Assembly: GCA_964401105.1 (NCBI GenBank)
Contig: CAYNXM010000357.1
Location: forward strand, 1 to 20,004
From: an uncultured Lyngbya sp.
GTDB lineage: Bacteria > Cyanobacteriota > Cyanobacteriia > Cyanobacteriales > Microcoleaceae
Direction: 5' to 3'
Length of the DNA stretch: 20,004 nt
Position numbers and translations under genes: made by a program. Shown here in pieces: positions 1 through 13,659 of the stretch. Positions within the stretch are counted from its first letter, which is position 1. The number at the start of each line of letters is the position of its first letter. The notes below the pieces were generated by a model, which had not been told where the DNA came from, did not search any database, and was given only the letters and a program-made list of their open reading frames with translations.

Positions 1-660
1 TGTAATTCCGGCTGGCAATAGTGTTGGGTCAATTGATAAACTTTCAACATCATCCCCATCTGGACGTGCTGTCAGGACAATGGTTGCCGAGACCATGTTA
101 GGACTATCGGTATCGGTGATAGTAACATCTGTATCCCCAATTGCAACAGGTGTTCCCCCAACGGTAAATGTTGTCGTGAAGTCATTTCCCGCGATAGTGG
201 TATCATCCCCGTCTAAGTCTAATATTGGAGGGATTGTTTCGGCGAAGGTGATAGTAGCGATCGCTGTATTACTGTCAAGAATCCCATCATTGACCGTAAC
301 TTGTACGATGCGATCATCTGGAGTAGGATTGTCGGCAGTGTTATTATAAACAATCTGGTTAATTGCGGTTTGATAATCTGCTTTTGTCGCAACACCTTCA
401 AGAATTAGAGTTCCAGTCTCTGGGTCATAATTACTGGCTGTAATTCCTGGCGGGAGTGTTCCGTTAACCGCTAAACTTTCAACATTATCCCCGTCAAGAG
501 GATTTGTTAGAACCAGGGTAGCCGAAACCATATTATCACTGTCATCATCAGTAATGACAACATCCACATCCCCAACAGGAACTGGATCTCCAGCAAACGC
601 ATCCGTAAAGTCGTCCCCTGTCGCTGTACTATCATCACCATCCAAGTCCAATACAGGGGG
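1..660 (-). repeat. Tandem coding repeats with a 429-nt (143-aa) period; acidic cadherin-like/T1SS-adhesin-type modules
   Basis: ATCATC(A/C)CC(A/G)TC(C/T)AAGTC(C/T)AATA occurs at 631-655 and again at 202-226, an offset of 429 nt. The peptide PP(V/I)LDLDGDD..F...PV.(V/I)GD.DV.ITD.DS.NMVSAT(L/I)VLT..(L/P)DGD(N/D)VESL recurs. The second copy is cut by the window edge. Confidence 0.7.
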
Positions 661-4373: not shown

Positions 4374-4721
4374 TTACCAGCCTTTCTCAGCTTTATCAAC
4401 AACGTAAGCAGCGACATTTTCAATTTGATCCGGCTTTAAACGTCCTTTGAAAGCAGGCATAGCACCCTTACCATTTGTGACTTGATAAGTAATTGCGGCT
4501 TGAGCGTCTTCACTAAATCCTTTTAAATACTTAGCCAGTGCCTCTTTCTTGAGGGTTTTGTTTGCCATAACTACATTTTTTCCTCCTATATGACAACTAG
4601 CACAATAGGCACTAAAAACCTGAGCGCCTTTTGCTGGATCGCCATCGGCTAAGGCTGGAGACTGTAAAGCGAATGAAAAAAAGAGAAGACCTAATAGTAC
4701 GAAAGAAAGTAACTTTTTCAA
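4374..4721 (-). CDS. petJ: Cytochrome c6 precursor (c-type haem CxxCH, Met axial ligand)
   Basis: The mature part is [38 protein letters not shown]...[12 protein letters not shown]...[16 protein letters not shown], a classic c6 sequence. I trimmed the 179-aa track ORF to the TTG at 4719-4721, which has GAGGAA 7 nt upstream. This gives the signal peptide (M)[24 protein letters not shown]. The longer ORF would overlap the petR start. Confidence 0.85.
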
Positions 4722-4789
4722 CGGAATGTTCCTCAACAGAAATAAATCGACAGAATATCGTGCCAAGATTTTGCTATACTGGGCTAACC

Positions 4790-4810
4790 TTGTCAAAAGA
4801 CAACGTGTCA
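4790..4810. promoter_or_regulatory. Candidate operator in the petJ/petR divergent intergenic region
   Basis: A perfect palindrome TTGTC-AAAA-GACAA lies at 4790-4803 and is followed by a second TGTCAA at 4806-4811. TGTCAA therefore occurs twice, 15 nt apart, between the divergent starts at 4721 and 4898. Its function is inferred only. Confidence 0.3.
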
Positions 4811-4897
4811 AACTTAAAGATTCAATAATAAAGTCTAAAATTAATTGCTTTACCCTAGGATAATAACGGTTAATCCCATTAATACCCAAAAATACAG

Positions 4898-5320
4898 ATG
4901 ACTTCTCTACCAAATTATCGTCCTAAAAAACTGTCAGTCGGCCCATTAGAACAGGAAATTTTAAATATTATCTGGGAATTAGATGGGGCAACCACAAAGC
5001 AAATTCATCAGTATATTCTGGCTGACCCGGATCGGGAATTGTCTTATCCGACCGTAACAACAGTATTGCAACGCCTCACTCAAAAAGGTTGGCTGGCCTG
5101 TGATCAAAGCGATCGCGCCTTTGTCTGGCAACCCTTACTCTCTCAAGCCGAAGCCCAACTCCTACAGGCCCATGAACGCCTCAATCAGTTTCTGGCTGTG
5201 ACAAACCCCGATATGGTCGCCGCTTTTGCGGATGATTTGGATCGGGGGAGTTTAAACCAACTCGAAGCGATCGCAGACCGGATACAAGCCATTCGTCAAG
5301 CCAGACAGGAGGAGGAATAA
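4898..5320 (+). CDS. petR: BlaI/MecI/CopY-family winged-helix transcriptional repressor (PetR-like)
   Basis: The ORF is 140 aa. [24 protein letters not shown]....[19 protein letters not shown] is the BlaI/CopY winged-helix pattern, followed by a C-terminal coiled dimerisation region. The gene is divergent from petJ, and its stop overlaps the start of the next gene (TAATG). Confidence 0.75.
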
Positions 5321-6168
5321 TGCATTTATTCATGTTAGGAATTGCCTTAACACTGGCTGTAGGAGTACAATCCATTAATCTAGCAGAGCAACCTACCCCC
5401 AGACAGCGGCTACAGCGGTCGCTGATCGGAATTTTAGTACCACCATTATTATTAATCATTACTGCGATCGCAGTGATTTGGATGGGGCCACAAGGAAAAA
5501 TGCTGGGACAATCTACAGGTCTGTTAGGCTATGGCTTAGCTTGGGGATTTTGTGGATGGGCGCTAGTATTAGCGGGTATTTTAATGATACAAGCCGTCAG
5601 ATCATTACAACAAATTCGCTCTTTTCCCACCCAACAGTTACACGGGATTAAAGTTCGAGTTTTGGATCAACCGATTTTATTTTGTGCTCAAATTGGTTTA
5701 TGGCATCCTGAATTAGTGGTAACAGAAGGCTTCATCCAAACCTTAAGCCATCAACAACAGCAGGCGGTTTTAACCCATGAGCAAGCCCATTATTATTACC
5801 GAGATACCTTTTGGTTCTTTTGGCTGGGTTGGTGTCGTCGCTTAACGGGATGGTTCCCCCAAACTGAAATATATTGGGAAGAACTGCTATTATTACGGGA
5901 ATTACGAGCCGATCGCTGGGCTGCACAACGGATCGATCCATTACTGTTGGCGGAGTCATTAGTGTTGATGGTTCGTCATCAGACCATTACCCCACCCGCA
6001 CATTGTGCAACCTTTAGTGCCGCCACGCCACAAAATCGCTTAGCTGAACGGATCGAGGCATTGTTAACAGAAAATATACCACCTCAGGAAAATTATTGGG
6101 AGGCTTGGGGTTGGATTGGATTTGTTTTACTACCTTTATTGACTATTCCATTTCATCACTATTTTTAG
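5320..6168 (+). CDS. petP: M56-family BlaR1-like membrane metalloprotease (PetP-like)
   Basis: The ORF is 282 aa with several hydrophobic segments. It carries the HExxH zinc motif within LTHEQAHYYYRD and a downstream ELRADRWA. It is translationally coupled to the BlaI-type gene, with GGAGGAGGAA directly upstream. Confidence 0.75.
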   Translation: MHLFMLGIALTLAVGVQSINLAEQPTPRQRLQRSLIGILVPPLLLIITAIAVIWMGPQGKMLGQSTGLLGYGLAWGFCGWALVLAGILMIQAVRSLQQIRSFPTQQLHGIKVRVLDQPILFCAQIGLWHPELVVTEGFIQTLSHQQQQAVLTHEQAHYYYRDTFWFFWLGWCRRLTGWFPQTEIYWEELLLLRELRADRWAAQRIDPLLLAESLVLMVRHQTITPPAHCATFSAATPQNRLAERIEALLTENIPPQENYWEAWGWIGFVLLPLLTIPFHHYF

Positions 6169-6203
6169 ATGTTTATAGAACCGTTATCAGATCTTTGTGA
6201 GAG

Positions 6204-6609
6204 AATCAATTGAAAATAGATCTCTAACTTGTCACATTAATCAGTTTGGATTAACTGCTAAGTACAAAGATATTGGAAATTGATATACTTGTTAAATTTT
6301 GATGACATTGTAAAGAAAAATAATGAGTTGGGATGACACGAGTTTACTGAGTTGACAGCTTCCAGTTGGGTTCTGTATGATATGAGATATAGAGTAAGAT
6401 TGGGTATAGGTATGCCTACAAACTCAAATTAGAGTAGATTTATTCTTTAAACCCTGATTATATCGAAGCAACTCTTACCATTAAACTCAGTAGAACTTAT
6501 TTTCTCTACAGCTAGGAAATACAGATATTAAATACCCTACTGTGAGGCAGGGGTTGACAAAACTACATAAATATGATGGCGGGGTGCGTCAATGACTGCG
6601 GCTCAGTCT
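6204..6609. repeat. Noncoding tandem module, copy A (406-bp period)
   Basis: It aligns colinearly with 6610-7127, as detailed in the findings. No ORF is conserved between the copies. Confidence 0.85.
6352..6381 (+). promoter_or_regulatory. Sigma70-type promoter candidate in copy A (TTGACA-N18-TATGAT)
   Basis: TTGACA lies at 6352-6357, the 18-nt spacer at 6358-6375 and TATGAT at 6376-6381. Both hexamers are identical in copy B, whereas 4 of the 18 spacer positions differ. Confidence 0.5.
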
Positions 6610-6757
6610 AATCAACTGAAAATAGATTTCTAACTTCTCACTACAATAAGTTTGGATTAACTGCTAAGCATAAAAATATTGAAAATTGATATACTTGTTA
6701 AATTTTGATGACATTCTCAACAAAAATGATGAGTTGGGATGACACGAGTTTACTGAG

Positions 6758-6787
6758 TTGACAGCTCCCCATCGGGTTCTGTATGAT
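6758..6787 (+). promoter_or_regulatory. Sigma70-type promoter candidate in copy B (TTGACA-N18-TATGAT), pointing toward the 3' end of acs
   Basis: TTGACA lies at 6758-6763, the 18-nt spacer at 6764-6781 and TATGAT at 6782-6787. Confidence 0.5.
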
Positions 6788-6852
6788 ATGAGATATAGAG
6801 TATGATTGGGTATAGGTATGCCTACGAACTCAAACTTTAGTAAGTATTCTCT

Positions 6853-6977
6853 GAGAGGAAATATTAGGCGAGACGGGAAATGCTTGGCGTGACGGGAAAT
6901 GTTTGGCGCGCGCGCCAACCCGTCAAGATAGCCAACCCGTCGATAGCCCAACCCGTCAAGACAGCCAACCTATTAAT
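6853..6977. repeat. Palindromic MITE-like insertion, present only in copy B
   Basis: The centre is TTGGCGCGCGCGCCAA (6903-6918). The left arm carries 2-3 GACGGGAAATGYTTGGCG units. The right arm carries 3 inverted CCAACCCGTC(A/G)A(G)ATAG units. Copy A has no equivalent sequence at this position. Confidence 0.55.
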
Positions 6978-7113
6978 TTCAAACCCCAATCGTATCGAAG
7001 CAACTCTTACCATTAAACTCAGTAGAACTTATTTTCTCTACAGCTAGAAAATACATAAATTAAATACTCTACGGTGAGCGGGAGTTGACAAAACTACAAA
7101 AATATGCAATTTG

Positions 7114-7132
7114 GGTGCGTCAATGACGCACC
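7114..7132 (-). terminator. Palindrome immediately downstream of the acs stop (weak terminator candidate)
   Basis: GGTGCGTCA-a-TGACGCACC starts 10 nt past the acs stop. A usable stem would be about 7 bp. On the minus strand the T run (TATTTTTG) begins only about 12 nt after the stem. Confidence 0.3.
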
Positions 7133-7141
7133 TGAGAGTGA

Positions 7142-9109
7142 TTATGCACCACCGCGTAATTTTTCCAGTACACTGAGATCTTGTAAGGTGGAAGTATCTC
7201 CGGCAATTTCTTCACCTGCTGCTAGGTTTCGTAAAAAGCGCCGCATAATTTTACCGGAACGAGTTTTAGGTAAATCATCGGTAAAGCGAATTTCACCTGG
7301 ACGGGCAATCGGCCCAATTTCTTGCACGACGTGTTGTTTTAGGGTTTTATTTAATTCCTCACTAGCTGCCTCATTTCCTTCTAAGGTGACAAAAGCAACA
7401 ATTTCCTCCCCTTTGACTTCATCAGGTCTGCCTACTACTGCGGCTTCTGCTACTGCCGGATGAGACACTAAAGCCGACTCAATTTCCATCGTTCCCAAAC
7501 GGTGTCCGGCTACACTAATAACATCATCCACACGACCCATTACCCAGAAATAACCATCTTCATCTCTGTGAGCACCATCTCCAGCAAAATAAACATAATT
7601 GCCATCTTTAGGGGGAATAAACTCCCAATAGCTGCGACGATAGCGTTCTGGGTTACCATAAACCGTTCGCATCATACTCGGCCAGGGATGTTTTATGACT
7701 AAATATCCGCCGTCATTGCCTTCAACAGGGTTGCCTGAACCATCGACAATATCAGCAATAATTCCAGGGAAGGGTAACGTGGCTGAACCAGGTTTTGTGG
7801 GGGTTGCACCGGGTAACGGGGTTAACATAAATCCTCCAGTTTCCGTTTGCCACCAGGTATCCACAATCGGACAGCGTTCAGCACCAATTACGCGATGATA
7901 CCACATCCAAGCTTCGGGATTAATCGGTTCGCCAACCGTTCCCAATAGCCGCAAAGACGATAAATTACGGGCGTTAGGATGCTTGTCTCCCATTTTCATC
8001 AATGCCCGAATAGCAGTGGGGGCAGTATAAAAAATCGTTACCCCTTGTTTTTCCACCACATCCCATAAACAGCCAGGGTTAGACGGACGAGGGGCACTTT
8101 CATACATCACCGTCGTTGCCCCATTCGATAACGGCCCATACACAATATAACTATGACCTGTAATCCAACCCACATCAGCAGTACACCAAAAGACATCTGT
8201 ATCTTGTAAATCAAACGTCCATTTGTTGGTCACATGAGTATAAAGGTTATAACCACCTGTCGTATGAACAACACCCTTAGGCTTTCCAGTCGTACCACTT
8301 GTATAAAGGATAAATAGCATATCCTCACTATCCATTGGTTCAGCCGGACAGTCGGGTGAGGCATCCGCTTTTAATTCATGCCACCAATGATCTCGACCCG
8401 CTTCCATGTTAATATCCTGACCAGTGCGTTTCACCGTTAACACATTTTCAACACTGGAAGCGCCTAATTCTATCGCTTTATCGACTTGATCTTTCAGCGC
8501 AACAATAGCATCTTTACGCCAACCGCCATCAGCCGTAATCACTAATTTTGCTTCAGCATCCACTAATCGATCTTTTAACGCTTCGGCACTAAACCCACCA
8601 AACACAACCGTATGCGGCGCACCAATTCTGGCACAAGCCAACATCGCGATCGCGGCTTCTGGTATCATCGGCATATAAATTCCGATGCGATCGCCTTTTT
8701 GCGCCCCCAACTGCTTCAGCACATTTGCCATTTGACAAACTTCTCGATGCAGTTGAGCATAAGTTAAAGTGCGAGAATCTCCCGGTTCCCCTTCCCAAAT
8801 TAAAGCGGCTTTGTTACGTCGCCAAGTCGCCAGATGCCGATCTAAACAATTGTAGGAAATATTAATTTTACCACCGACAAACCACTTGGCAATTGGCGGT
8901 TGCCAGTCCAGTACTGTATCCCATTTCTCAAACCAGTGTAATTCTTTTTCTGCCAATTCTGCCCAAAATCCTTCCGGGTCGGCTTTCGCTTGATCGTAAA
9001 GTTGTTGATATTGCTCTAAACTTTGAATATGGGCATTTTGCGAGAACTCTGTCGGCGGCTCAAACAGGCGTTGCTCATGTAAAATCGATTCAATAGTAGG
9101 TTGTGACAT
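7142..9109 (-). CDS. acs: Acetyl-CoA synthetase (AMP-forming)
   Basis: The motifs [34 protein letters not shown] and [11 protein letters not shown] are present. I trimmed the start to the ATG at 9107-9109 ([19 protein letters not shown]...), the usual Acs N-terminus. The 33 extra codons in the track ORF look like upstream read-through. Confidence 0.95.
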
Positions 9110-9357: not shown

Positions 9358-9828
9358 ATGGAACCGATAGAATTGACTGTTGCCGCATTAGCATCCTTAA
9401 TGATAACGAAAGCCACAGGAAAAGTTGGAGACAAATTGGGGGATAAGATATTTGAACAAGGCGGAAATTTACTGCAACAGCTTCGCCGGAAGTCTCCTCA
9501 AACTGCATCGGCAATTGAAAAAGTTAACCAGACCCCTTTAAATTGGGATCAAGCGGTAATAGATGTTAAGGCAACAGCAGCAGACTATCCAGAGGTTGCC
9601 CAAATAGTTGAGGAAGTAGAAGCAACTATTAGTGATGATACAGAATTGAGAAAAACGTTAGAAGAAATTGCTGCAACGATTAAATCTCAGCCTGCAACCG
9701 TTCAGAATTCCGCCCAGTTAGCCGAGAAAATTAATGCTTTATTTCAGGGAACAACTATTACAGGTGGAAACGTTGGTAATACAGGCATGACAGGCAGTAC
9801 CATTCAAGGCGGTACATTTAATATATGA
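9358..9828 (+). CDS. Small alpha-helical protein with a hydrophobic N-terminal helix and a G/N/T-rich C-terminal tail (possible NLR-associated executioner/adaptor domain)
   Basis: The ORF is 156 aa. It begins MEPIELTVAALASLMITKATGKVG and continues with a charged helical body. The tail is FQGTTITGGNVGNTGMTGSTIQGGTFNI, followed by a TGA stop. It sits directly upstream of, and in the same frame as, the ancestral 5' end of the NB-ARC gene. Confidence 0.6.
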   Translation: MEPIELTVAALASLMITKATGKVGDKLGDKIFEQGGNLLQQLRRKSPQTASAIEKVNQTPLNWDQAVIDVKATAADYPEVAQIVEEVEATISDDTELRKTLEEIAATIKSQPATVQNSAQLAEKINALFQGTTITGGNVGNTGMTGSTIQGGTFNI

Positions 9829-11764: not shown

Positions 11765-12187
11765 CTACATATCGGGTTCAAAAAAATATTCAAATCCCTT
11801 CTGTTTTAATCCAGCTTTAAGTTTTTTGTCTCCTGTCCACAATAAACCTTGCAATTGCAATGTTAAAGCCACATGAGGTGTATCACTTACATCCACATCG
11901 CGACAATATTCATAAGCTAATGAGCGATTTTCAATTGCGATCAAGTCTTCTTTGTATAAATTAATCCGCCTCAATAAAATATGATAAACTTTAATCACTT
12001 CATCTTCTGTTAATTGACTACGCTGAATAATTTTTTCTTTTCGTTTAAAAAGTTCAACTAAGACTAGCTCACAAACAAATAAATTGTACTCTGATTTAAA
12101 AATAAATTCAGTGAACCGAGATTGCTCCCTTAGTAGTGAAGAAAATAAAATATTCGTATCAATAATTATCGGTGGCATCGACATCAT
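11765..12187 (-). CDS. PIN-domain ribonuclease toxin (VapC-like)
   Basis: IIIDTNILFSSLL is the first acidic PIN motif, and DVSDTPHVALTLQLQGLLWTGDKKL is the distal PIN motif region. The ATG overlaps the stop of the upstream small gene (TGATG). Confidence 0.8.
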   Translation of the reverse strand: MMSMPPIIIDTNILFSSLLREQSRFTEFIFKSEYNLFVCELVLVELFKRKEKIIQRSQLTEDEVIKVYHILLRRINLYKEDLIAIENRSLAYEYCRDVDVSDTPHVALTLQLQGLLWTGDKKLKAGLKQKGFEYFFEPDM

Positions 12188-12414
12188 CAATAACCAGTAA
12201 ACTTAGATTGAATACTTTCCCAAACTGCTTGATCAATCTCCAAGGCTAATTGATCTGCTTGTTCTCCTGTTAATTGACTTCGCTTGCGAATGGACTCTAA
12301 CTCTAGATAATCTAAAAACATTCTGAGTTGCTCTAAGTCGATTGACTCTCGGTTTAGCCGAACAACAATATCTTTATTTTCTAGTCTAATTGTGTAGTTT
12401 GATTGTTCTGACAT
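12187..12414 (-). CDS. Cognate small antitoxin-like protein of the PIN toxin
   Basis: I trimmed the track ORF to the ATG at 12412-12414 (MSEQSNYTIRLENKD...), giving 75 aa. The protein is acidic and helical at the C-terminus and is coupled to the PIN gene. No family is recognised, so the call rests on operon architecture. Confidence 0.55.
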   Translation of the reverse strand: MSEQSNYTIRLENKDIVVRLNRESIDLEQLRMFLDYLELESIRKRSQLTGEQADQLALEIDQAVWESIQSKFTGY

Positions 12415-12569
12415 TTTATTTTGAGAACTTGTCATTGATCTATCATTATTATAAATGACTCTCACTAAAACAGAGATAAAATTATGCGATCGCGTAATTG
12501 ACTTCACCATAAGTGGCTTTGTGATACTATATTATCATCAAGGTAAAATGCAGTCCTTAAAATAAGATT

Positions 12570-12860
12570 ATGCTAAATGGTATCAAACAACGAGGAGTTG
12601 TGAGTAAAGATGGCAAAATTGAAATTCAAATACCTGAACTCCCAGAAGGAACAATTGTTGAGGTTATCGTTTTAGTTGAGAAAGAAATAATAGAATCAGA
12701 TTGTAGTTCGCAAATTCCACAAGATACAACAGAATATTTACTCTCAAATGGATCTAATCGTCGTCATTTAATGACTGGAATTGAAAATATAGAAAATAAT
12801 ACTAATCTTGTTAGTTTTACTCAAGAGAAATGGGATGAGGAACATAACATTCACTCCTAA
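12570..12860 (+). CDS. Chimeric antitoxin with a YefM-type C-terminal toxin-binding tail on a non-YefM beta-rich N-terminal domain
   Basis: The C-terminus TTEYLLSNGSNRRHLMTGIENIENN resembles the E. coli YefM segment [22 protein letters not shown]. The N-terminus GVVSKDGKIEIQIPELPEGTIVEVIVLVEKE lacks the Phd/YefM fold signature and resembles AF2212/DUF104-type antitoxins. The gene overlaps the yoeB-like start. Confidence 0.65.
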   Translation: MLNGIKQRGVVSKDGKIEIQIPELPEGTIVEVIVLVEKEIIESDCSSQIPQDTTEYLLSNGSNRRHLMTGIENIENNTNLVSFTQEKWDEEHNIHS

Positions 12861-13098
12861 AGCCTTTGAAGATTTTAATAATTGGGCAATACAAGATAAG
12901 AAAACTTCTCGTAAGATTATTACTCTGATTAACGATATACTTCGTCAACCTTTTACTGGGTTGGGTAAACCTGAACCTTTGAAACATGAGCTGAAAGGAT
13001 ATTGGTCACGGCGCATTACTGATGAGCATCGTTTAGTCTATAAGGTTAGTGAGAATGCAATTATTATTCTAAGTTGTCGATTTCATTATGATGACTAA
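12835..13098 (+). CDS. yoeB: YoeB/Txe-family mRNA interferase toxin
   Basis: [33 protein letters not shown]....[10 protein letters not shown] is near-identical in pattern to E. coli YoeB ([31 protein letters not shown]...CRYHY). The start is set at the ATG at 12835 ([14 protein letters not shown]). Confidence 0.85.
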   Translation: [87 protein letters not shown]

Positions 13099-13107
13099 CC
13101 TGAAAGA

Positions 13108-13297
13108 GATTCTATATTGAGGCTAAATCATTATAGAAAGTTAAATGAAAACTATACAATTATACCTTGCAGTTCCGATAGAAACATATCGCTCTTTTTT
13201 CAGTCGAGATTTAGCACAGGCATCTGTACAAGAATATCAAGTTAAAATGATTATTTATGATTCTATGAATGAGGTAATAATACAATGGATAAACTAG
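13108..13297 (+). pseudogene. xisH: xisH remnant (C-terminal third only, with an internal frameshift)
   Basis: IQLYLAVPIETYRSFFSRDLAQASVQEYQVKMIIYDSMNEVIIQWIN matches the XisH C-terminus (..LYLAVP...Y..FF........YQVK(L/M)I.(F/Y)....E.I.QW.N). LNHYRKLNENY lies just upstream in another frame. The stop overlaps the xisI ATG, as in intact xisHI pairs. The N-terminal ~90 aa are absent. Confidence 0.6.
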
Positions 13298-13449
13298 AAA
13301 AAAAACGTCAAATAATTCAAGAATTTTTAATCAAGTACAGTGACTTTCAAATAAAAGAAGAACATATTGAAACTCAGTTAATATTTGATCCTGAACGAGA
13401 TCATTATCAAATATTAGAATTAGGTTGGGAAGGTTATGATCGAATTTAC
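13285..13449 (+). pseudogene. xisI: xisI remnant (N-terminal half)
   Basis: MDKLEKKRQIIQEFLIKY......IETQLIFDPERDHYQILELGWEGYDRIY fits the XisI N-terminal pattern. Past 13449 the plus-strand reading is merely the antisense of the MNT remnant. Confidence 0.7.
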
Positions 13450-13659
13450 AAAGGAAAGATGCATAAAGTTATCAAACGTTTTTTGATTCGGCTTAAACAT
13501 CACTAGAATATCAACATCACTTTGATTATTAATCTCAGTATCACGGACAAATGAACCGAAAATACCACAACGACTGATTCCAAAAGGTTGTAAATCCTGT
13601 TGATTTTTTTGCAGTAAAGATCAAACTTCAGCTTTCGTTTGTACAGGTATTGTTTGCAT
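13450..13659 (-). pseudogene. MNT-type nucleotidyltransferase (HEPN/MNT antitoxin-like) remnant, frameshifted and 3'-truncated
   Basis: The minus strand reads MQTIPVQTKAEV and then a stop. After a 1-nt shift it reads SLLQKNQQDLQPFGISRCGIFGSFVRDTEINNQSDVDILVMFKPNQKTFDNFMHLSF, which carries the GSxxRG..x..SDxDhhV nucleotidyltransferase motif. Homology stops at the junction with xisI. Confidence 0.65.

Follow-up and report, generated by a model that had tools for sequence, protein, structure and literature searches.

The genome of Trichodesmium erythraeum IMS101 (CP000393) contains, at about 103,000-110,200, an array of seven tandem repeats, 736-973 bp in length, which run along the forward strand directly next to the 3' end of Tery_0080, a gene of the reverse strand (Pfreundt et al. 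2014, Sci Rep 4:6187; PMC4143802). From a transcription start site (TSS) inside this array, a non-coding RNA (ncRNA) of ~260 nt is produced, which makes up 44.7% of all primary reads and is the most abundant ncRNA; the transcripts were proven by differential RNA sequencing and Northern blots (PMC4143802). The repeats are mostly >96% identical, except for repeat 0 (~87%), and contain coding 3' parts of Tery_0080 (PMC4143802), whereas the remainder is similar to nothing else known and its function is unknown (PMC4143802; review PMC6596454). Here, a locus of similar layout is described in a 20,004-nt stretch of DNA (hereafter, the window) from an uncultured Lyngbya sp. (assembly GCA_964401105.1, contig CAYNXM010000357.1), where two head-to-tail copies, A and B, of a ~406-bp non-coding unit lie between the gene of an M56/BlaR1-like metallopeptidase and the convergent gene acs, encoding acetyl-CoA synthetase.

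By its architecture, the Trichodesmium array is the closest precedent, and the present locus is a two-copy miniature of that layout. Both belong to the family Microcoleaceae (for the window, judging from the names of clusters and homologues); in both, direct repeats free of open reading frames (ORFs) are opposite in strand to the next gene and abut its 3' end (here, 6204-7141 and acs), and the unit includes material of the neighbor gene's 3' end, since copy A repeats the left arm of a palindrome situated downstream of acs. Each unit contains a promoter or TSS, predicted in our case, with ~200-260 nt left to the unit end, and one copy is diverged (~87% for repeat 0 in Trichodesmium; 87.8% for A vs. 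B). At the same time, the Trichodesmium array comprises 7 copies of 736-973 bp, whereas the window has two, of 406 bp and, with an insert, 532 bp; it repeats coding 3' parts of the gene and not, as here, only the post-stop non-coding flank of acs; and its transcripts are proven, those of the present units being predicted.

Another group of related systems is represented by tandem sibling small RNA (sRNA) genes, e.g., PrrF1/PrrF2 of Pseudomonas aeruginosa and the NsiR1 array upstream of hetF in Nostocales, which feature intrinsic terminators, regulated promoters (Fur for PrrF; NtcA/HetR for NsiR1) and known targets, with NsiR1 being conserved in at least 19 other cyanobacteria (PMC4211561, PMC7948967, PMC6596454). 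The similarity consists in the head-to-tail arrangement of non-coding copies, each with its own (here, predicted) promoter, and in the possibility of read-through from the first to the second copy, as with PrrH. Unlike these genes, the units in the window are far longer than a typical sRNA gene and possess neither a U-tract intrinsic terminator nor a recognizable regulator site, and homologues conserved in relatives were not found in the searches described below. The locus also shares traits with an ordinary tandem duplication between short direct repeats, i.e., head-to-tail copies with a short stretch of diverged sequence between them, similar 12-nt motifs flanking the duplicated segment, and a recombinant contig (L005, see below). 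Such duplications, however, are usually young and near-identical, whereas this one combines 12% divergence with a near-consensus promoter.

We tentatively read the locus as a pair of promoter-bearing non-coding units, probably giving plus-strand RNAs convergent on acs, that is, as a candidate pair of orphan ncRNAs; this is our preferred reading, held with rather less than even confidence. The evidence for function is weak, and a functional ncRNA should be regarded as possible.

A tandem duplication with a promoter-like site in each copy

The repeat search of the window yielded three colinear pairs of segments: 6204-6436/6610-6842 (spacing 406, identity 90%), 6446-6546/6978-7078 (spacing 532, identity 90%) and 6547-6596/7078-7127 (spacing 531, identity 82%). 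In the MAFFT alignment, the copies differ by 48 mismatches in 392 ungapped columns (87.8% identity), and a weak similarity extends past 6596 to about 6611. An earlier reading made from the letters only (hereafter, the sequence-only reading) had proposed two ORF-free tandem copies at an offset of 406, which was borne out by both methods; its estimates of nine-tenths identity and ~125 extra bp in copy B were close to the values measured (the latter being 126 nt, so that copy B amounts to 532 bp vs. 406 bp of the unit). The units are A+T-rich (G+C ~34%; 33.6% in copy A vs. 40.3% in the window). The coordinates of the features are collected in Table 1.

Table 1. Features of the duplicated locus and its flanking genes (positions in the window; TSS, transcription start site)
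Feature	Position	Strand	Basis or remark
BlaI-type repressor gene (Penicillinase_R)	4898..5320		Pfam; overlaps M56 gene by ATGA at 5320
M56/BlaR1-like metallopeptidase gene	5320..6168	+	Pfam; homologues named M56 family metallopeptidase, Microcoleaceae
Copy A, ~406-bp non-coding unit	6204..6609	+	Homology core 6204-6596; diverged junction tail 6597-6609; repeat search, MAFFT
38-nt identical block	6323..6360 (6729-6766 in B)	+	Spans -35 hexamer plus 29 nt upstream
Promoter-like site, copy A	6352..6381	+	TTGACA, 18 nt, TATGAT (11/12); predicted TSS near 6387-6389
Putative copy A transcript, about 215 nt	6388..6605	+	Predicted TSS to degenerate end hairpin 6574-6614 (core GCGUC/GAC.GC, 6585-6599)
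Longest identical block, 55 nt	6461..6515 (6993-7047 in B)	+	GUAGA/UCUAC hairpin and 5' arm of predicted long-range helix
Copy B of unit	6610..7141	+	Core 6610-7127; reaches acs stop codon; contains 126-nt extra block
Promoter-like site, copy B	6758..6787	+	Hexamers and spacer length same as in A; predicted TSS near 6793-6795
Putative copy B transcript, about 340 nt	6794..7135	+	Would end at palindrome or read through into acs antisense
Extra G+C-rich 126-nt block, copy B only	6852..6977		MAFFT gap
Perfect palindrome GGTGCGTCAATGACGCACC	7114..7132		9 nt past acs stop codon (7142-7144); repeat search
acs, acetyl-CoA synthetase, 655 aa	7142..9109	-	Pfam ACAS_N, AMP-binding, AMP-binding_C; also called as gene in L001

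The gap is covered by ENA assemblies obtained from different samples with different assemblers: ERZ27263989 (contigs L001/L117), ERZ23498879 (L002 and L118) and ERZ23500150 (L119). Across the independent assemblies L001/L117, L002 and L119, which span the unique 13-nt A/B junction (6597-6609), neither this junction nor copy B differs, while L118 covers the acs side from 6907; there are zero mismatches to the window inside 6169-7141 in L001/L117, L002, L118 and L119. Since three assemblies from different samples span the unique junction without a mismatch, the tandem duplication is real and not an artefact of assembly. This disposes of most of what could be said for a chimera of two strain haplotypes, which would be suggested by contigs breaking within the repeats (the short-k contigs L003 at 6306 and L004 at 6410; L002 and L118 at 6906 and 6907) and by the Logan contig L005, which collapses A and B. 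The latter contig is a perfect single-copy hybrid that follows A as far as 6360 and B from 6361 on, with the crossover within the 38-nt identical block; it could represent a true allele with one copy deleted or, alternatively, a chimera of k=31 assembly.

The same verdict applies to the companion idea that the unit encodes a small protein. Its only foothold is a 56-codon stop-free minus-strand frame common to both copies (6261-6428), which lacks a start codon in A and in which 14 nucleotide differences lead to 11 amino-acid changes, so that almost all the change is non-synonymous. No match to this frame was found when it was searched as an alignment in a set of 5.8 billion proteins, and the stop-free frames had no Pfam match, including no transposase remnant in any frame. 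A shared ORF of at least 20 aa between A and B was not found, and the 16-codon plus-strand ORF at 6382 is shortened to 5 codons in B by an A-to-T change at 6397, as the sequence-only reading had stated; its claim that no ORF is conserved stands as well. Accordingly, a small-protein gene was rejected, and the artefact-or-coding explanation as a whole is largely refuted and extremely improbable.

The promoter-like sites found in both copies were classified, by their match to the consensus, as predicted near-consensus promoters of the sigma-70 type. In the whole 20-kb window, they are the only two matches of at least 11/12 to TTGACA-N16-18-TATAAT, and one such site arises in 2.5% of dinucleotide shuffles of copy A, a point in favor of the ncRNA reading. 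The four A/B substitutions in the promoter region are all mid-spacer (positions equivalent to 6361-6367), and the retention of the hexamers and of the spacer length alongside these substitutions speaks for the ncRNA reading.

The age of the duplication speaks for the ncRNA reading as well. The sampled population is 99.6-99.97% identical, and the gap has no mismatch to the window in every covering assembly except the hybrid L005. As the copies are 12% diverged, the tandem state is old relative to this population. Identical tandem duplications are usually lost fast through recombination, and for a tandem duplicate to reach 12% divergence, luck or selection is required. The polymorphism itself turned out to be uninformative as a test of constraint, because the gap shows no variation (the hybrid L005 aside).

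Predicted transcripts and the weight of the evidence for function

In the proposed model, a lineage-specific sequence at the junction of the M56 and acs genes was duplicated in tandem, as a unit of ~406 bp reaching the acs stop codon, with a 126-nt repeat block later gained in copy B or lost from copy A. Both near-consensus plus-strand promoters would fire, and each unit would give a non-coding RNA of ~0.2 kb (A) or 0.34 kb (B) running toward the 3' end of acs and stopping at, or partly passing, the stem-loop which ends its unit. The duplication would thereby double the RNA output. The function could be exerted in trans or, alternatively, via antisense pairing or transcriptional interference on acs; an independent ncRNA is deemed somewhat more likely than the antisense control of acs.

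The palindrome at the end of copy B is likely the terminator hairpin of acs and, judging from its predicted folding, possibly a stop for plus-strand transcripts too. For 7105-7160, the folding energy is -22.1 kcal/mol on the plus strand (z -3.8) and -18.8 kcal/mol on the minus strand (z -2.6). Copy A keeps intact only the left arm of GGTGCGTCAATGACGCACC; its end (6574-6625) folds on the plus strand into a weaker hairpin of -12.8 kcal/mol (z -1.4). The sequence-only reading had maintained that copy A ends within this palindrome, so that the duplicated unit included the 3' flank of acs. It was right in that the left arm is repeated, but a weaker hairpin still forms in copy A and the similarity goes on to ~6611; likewise, the location of the palindrome was given correctly, the distance from the acs stop codon being 9 nt instead of the 10 nt reported.

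Consensus folds of A and B compared with column shuffles had z-scores of -2.75 (p 0.013) for 6386-6436, -1.95 (p 0.047) for 6446-6612 and -1.66 (p 0.06) for 6463-6562 on the plus strand; the corresponding minus-strand values were -1.67, -0.30 and +0.74. Hence, a weak structure signal is suggested by the modeling, confined to the strand of the promoter, and this coincidence of strands is one more reason to favor the ncRNA reading. Within columns 24-159 of alignment A5, which correspond to the 3' part, two double-sided and three one-sided changes retain pairing and none of the predicted pairs is broken. With only two sequences, however, covariation has no statistical power.

One alternative retains transcription and dispenses with a functional RNA sequence: the tandem promoters would drive convergent read-through, and interference or duplex formation would lower the expression of acs. 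It accords with the orientation of both promoters, which face acs, with a distance of ~348 nt between the predicted B start (~6794) and the stop codon of acs, and with a plus-strand hairpin not followed by a U-tract; it is also compatible with the 126-nt insertion, the weak structure and the failure to find homologues, and antisense transcription is widespread in cyanobacteria (PMC6596454). Still, with a hairpin as strong as this one (-22 kcal/mol, z -3.8), most transcripts may terminate before acs, the relatives run acs without such a unit, and read-through into acs is purely predicted. On balance, cis control of acs by these promoters is unlikely.

Several results weigh against the candidate ncRNA pair. 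First, the preservation of the promoter is not evidence of selection, because all 12 hexamer bases would stay intact at 12% divergence with a probability of ~21% under neutrality (0.88^12), and a genome with ~1 Mb of A+T-rich spacer would contain tens of chance promoter-like sites of equal quality. Thus, the preserved promoter of the sequence-only reading is confirmed as the same strong promoter-like site in both copies but not as a sign of selection. Second, a plus-strand U-tract terminator was not found in 6000-7400, the end hairpins not being followed by U-runs, and the 126-nt block interrupts the would-be B transcript, near position +58 as counted from the predicted TSS. Single-sequence folds are not significant: on the plus strand, z is -0.5 to -1.3; over both strands, it is -0.5 to -1.6, except for 6463-6562 on the minus strand (+0.33), with -0.5 to -1.1 for the putative copy A transcript. 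The observed covariation count on the alifold structure (two rows) was reached in 128 of 500 shuffles, and the duplexes of the putative RNAs with 19 local translation-initiation regions were no better than those of shuffles (fraction at or below the observed value, 0.30-0.55).

Third, the difference pattern of the two copies offers poor evidence of constraint. The identical runs in the alignment measure 55, 38, 33, 29, 22 and 20 nt; all four blocks quoted by the sequence-only reading were found (the longest had been counted there as 54 nt), and the mismatch patches it had named are located where the mismatches of the alignment fall. In per-site permutations, the longest run (p = 0.02), the top four runs (p = 0.0005) and the run-length variance (p = 0.0015) all depart from expectation. 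When adjacent mismatches are counted as one event, the same three statistics have p = 0.11, 0.04 and 0.07, and when the badly aligned indel flank is also removed, p = 0.11-0.17; a run of at least 55 nt appeared in 2% of the per-site and 11% of the event-level permutations. Differences at adjacent bases are frequent (e.g., 6236-6238 and 6576-6581), and the indel flank 6429-6460 carries 13 mismatches in 32 nt. The clustering of differences is therefore present but marginal and not robust, and the block-wise conservation or patchy constraint asserted earlier holds per site (p 0.0005-0.02) but not at the event level (p 0.04-0.17). It is explained equally well by multi-base mutations, by misalignment beside the indel or by gene conversion between the copies, which would produce long identical tracts too.

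Fourth, the searches for relatives of the unit were negative. In the whole window, there were no Rfam 15 matches at the gathering threshold, and a permissive search of 6100-7250 gave at best 24.4 bits vs. a gathering score of 90, the E-values of 0.26-9.7 being at chance level; in this respect, the statement that the unit belongs to no recognizable RNA family was sound. ARAGORN found no tRNA or tmRNA. In distant-mode BLASTN, no plasmid of PLSDB and no phage of INPHARED was matched by copy A, by the insert or by the gap as a whole. Exact patterns had no match in the GTDB genome collection (ACCATTAAACTCAGTAGAAC, a 20-mer) or in JGI metagenome contigs (ACGAGTTTACTGAGTTGACA), and three further patterns had none in IMG/VR viral contigs, while TTACCATTAAACTCAGTAG had 6 matches in JGI metagenomes and 3 in IMG/VR viral contigs, all ascribed to chance, since the similarity was limited to the 19-21-nt word. 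Such exact-word scans, with 19-20-mers taken from conserved blocks, miss diverged copies. No similarity to the gap was found in 80 GTDB acs loci or at the acs or M56 flanks of the relatives (the syntenic relatives compared at the flanks display 77-89.5% coding-DNA identity), and an nhmmer search with the A+B profile in 111 foreign loci (1.58 Mb) gave nothing significant (best E-value 0.26). The sequence-only reading had itself proposed that a failure to find homologues outside the strain would count against it; none emerged from the collections and flanks searched, the whole genomes of the relatives being outside this search. The lineage-specific character of the unit is, by these comparisons, well supported for the locus and provisional for the genome.

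The main alternative is a neutral duplicated spacer, i.e., a copy of junction DNA made by slippage or unequal recombination, with a chance promoter match in DNA of 34% G+C and no functional product, where the identical blocks would stem from mutations hitting several bases at once, from poor alignment next to the indel and from partial gene conversion between the copies. In its favor, the homology with every relative breaks off precisely at the stop codons of the M56 gene and acs, as in filler at a synteny break; homologues were not found in the collections or flanks searched; the event-level clustering has p = 0.04-0.17; the folds are not significant, a plus-strand U-tract terminator is lacking and the covariation is powerless. 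Furthermore, L005, as a clean A/B recombinant with its crossover in the 38-nt block, shows or mimics exchange between the copies, and TGAGAGAATCAA and TGAGAGTGATTA at the segment ends fit a microhomology-mediated duplication. A neutral origin is harder to reconcile with an 11/12 site that has no further counterpart in the 20 kb and is produced by only 2.5% of the shuffles of one unit, with a structure signal which, although weak, is strand-specific and on the promoter's strand, with survival to 12% divergence (which requires luck or selection), and with a like architecture that yields the most abundant RNA of Trichodesmium. The neutral spacer is a serious contender, next in rank to the candidate ncRNA pair and likewise short of even odds. 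On the whole, the module proposed by the sequence-only reading, a duplicated ncRNA gene or regulatory element, survives as far as its non-coding nature, the promoter-like sites and the lack of a known family are concerned, but not with regard to constraint and homologues.

The insert of copy B has an internal organization of its own. According to TRF and the repeat search, a 19-nt unit is repeated 2.7 times (6857-6908) and then a partly complementary unit of 17 nt 3.4 times (6914-6970), around the GC palindrome GGCGCGCGCGCC (6905-6916) in the center; the G+C content across 6843-6977 is 52.6%. The palindrome acts as a break point of assembly or sequencing, because L002 and L118, contigs from the same sample, terminate there from opposite sides (at 6906 and 6907). 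The insert was also considered as a hairpin-type miniature inverted-repeat transposable element (MITE), which was rejected: its DNA fold is not significant (z -1.5) and no other copy was found. In a relative (L093, 12038-12166), 5.2 near-perfect tandem copies of the 25-nt CAATAAATATAGTGACGGGCGCATG follow right after the acs terminator, and the insert of copy B shares the GTGACGGG core of this repeat in its 19-nt subrepeats (window 6889-6896). A clade-typical filler at gene 3' ends may be represented by short tandem repeats containing GACGGG.

The synteny break between the M56 and acs genes

The gene upstream of the duplication had been named petP in the sequence-only reading; by Pfam, it encodes an M56/BlaR1-like peptidase. 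A cytochrome c gene (4374-4913) and a TPR gene are oriented divergently to the BlaI/M56 pair, and together the four genes form a block conserved in the relatives L100, L104 and L105; by Pfam, neither the BlaI-type nor the cytochrome c gene is petP either. The acs gene is convergent with the M56 gene and with the promoters of the units, and 973 bp separate the two genes. In the closest M56 relatives (77-82% identity of the BlaI/M56 DNA), the similarity does not continue beyond the M56 stop codon, after which other genes are located.

On the acs side, the nearest GTDB species representatives share at most 83% amino-acid identity of Acs (80 acs loci). In the relatives from the same 90% Acs cluster, whose acs DNA is 85-89.5% identical, the similarity ends at the acs stop codon; these relatives share another, mutually conserved terminator hairpin (GAGGGYAC...GTRCCCT), and their downstream genes vary by lineage. 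Since homology ends exactly at the acs and M56 stop codons, the gap is a new sequence joining blocks that are separate in the relatives. By this comparison, it is a lineage-specific synteny-break junction, nearly all of which is filled by the duplication, up to the acs stop. The neighborhood of acs differs in each relative of its 90% protein cluster (L086-L099), with only L087 sharing the NB-ARC side, and homology breaks at the acs stop codon; hence, the surroundings of acs are prone to rearrangement in this clade.

A novel sequence lying exactly between two synteny blocks might be the relic of a mobile or foreign element (a MITE, a fragment of an insertion sequence (IS) end, a scrap of phage or plasmid) which joined the M56 and acs blocks and was then duplicated. 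This would agree with the different context of acs in every relative, the A+T-richness relative to the window, and the IS605-type gene found near acs in one relative (L098). Nevertheless, neither terminal inverted repeats nor a target-site duplication was found for the unit in the repeat search, nor did any other copy of it appear in the window or the 37-kb contig L001 (with the gap masked) or in the 1.58 Mb of related loci, so the unit does not display the hallmarks of a MITE; matches to plasmids, phages or viral contigs and a transposase remnant in any frame were lacking as well. Such a relic is very unlikely. As to the mechanism of duplication, the similar 12-nt motifs flanking the duplicated segment, TGAGAGAATCAA (6198-6209) and TGAGAGTGATTA (7134-7145), would fit a microhomology-mediated event.

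If the candidate ncRNA pair is accepted, the unit could be a young, de novo-born ncRNA gene, in which DNA of a rearrangement junction gained a promoter and, being highly expressed, is now amplifying in tandem like an early Trichodesmium array. This extension of the reading is doubtful; were it true, the duplicated 3' flanks of genes would constitute a recurrent route to abundant lineage-specific ncRNAs in Microcoleaceae. If the units are transcribed, they would in any case represent a second, independent orphan ncRNA of this family located in tandem repeats that originate from a convergent gene's 3' flank. The Trichodesmium array has been unexplained since 2014, and a transcribed two-copy version at 12% divergence would help to show how such loci originate and whether their amplification is driven by dosage. 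Should the units prove untranscribed, this is an ordinary spacer that was duplicated at the junction of a rearrangement, and it would caution that near-consensus promoters and block-wise conservation of two paralogous copies are, alone, weak evidence.

Other variable and repetitive features of the window

Several observations were made elsewhere in the window. Within 9384-9451, at the 5' end of a 156-aa ORF (9358-9828), 13 single-nucleotide polymorphisms are concentrated in 68 nt in comparison with L118/L119, which are otherwise >99.6% identical; the pattern resembles that of a small tract of recombination or of a hypervariable patch.

The start of the window (1-495) lies within a 2553-aa minus-strand ORF that leaves the window, and is 82% identical to a site ~440 nt further (L001 4244-4738; L117 19050-19547). 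As the window start recurs within the same ORF, this giant protein has internal tandem repeats.

Finally, the region 11765-13500, beside an NB-ARC/TPR gene, harbors a PIN-domain toxin with its partner, a YoeB-type toxin with its partner, and XisH/XisI. The island-like content of this accessory cluster is typical of filamentous cyanobacteria.

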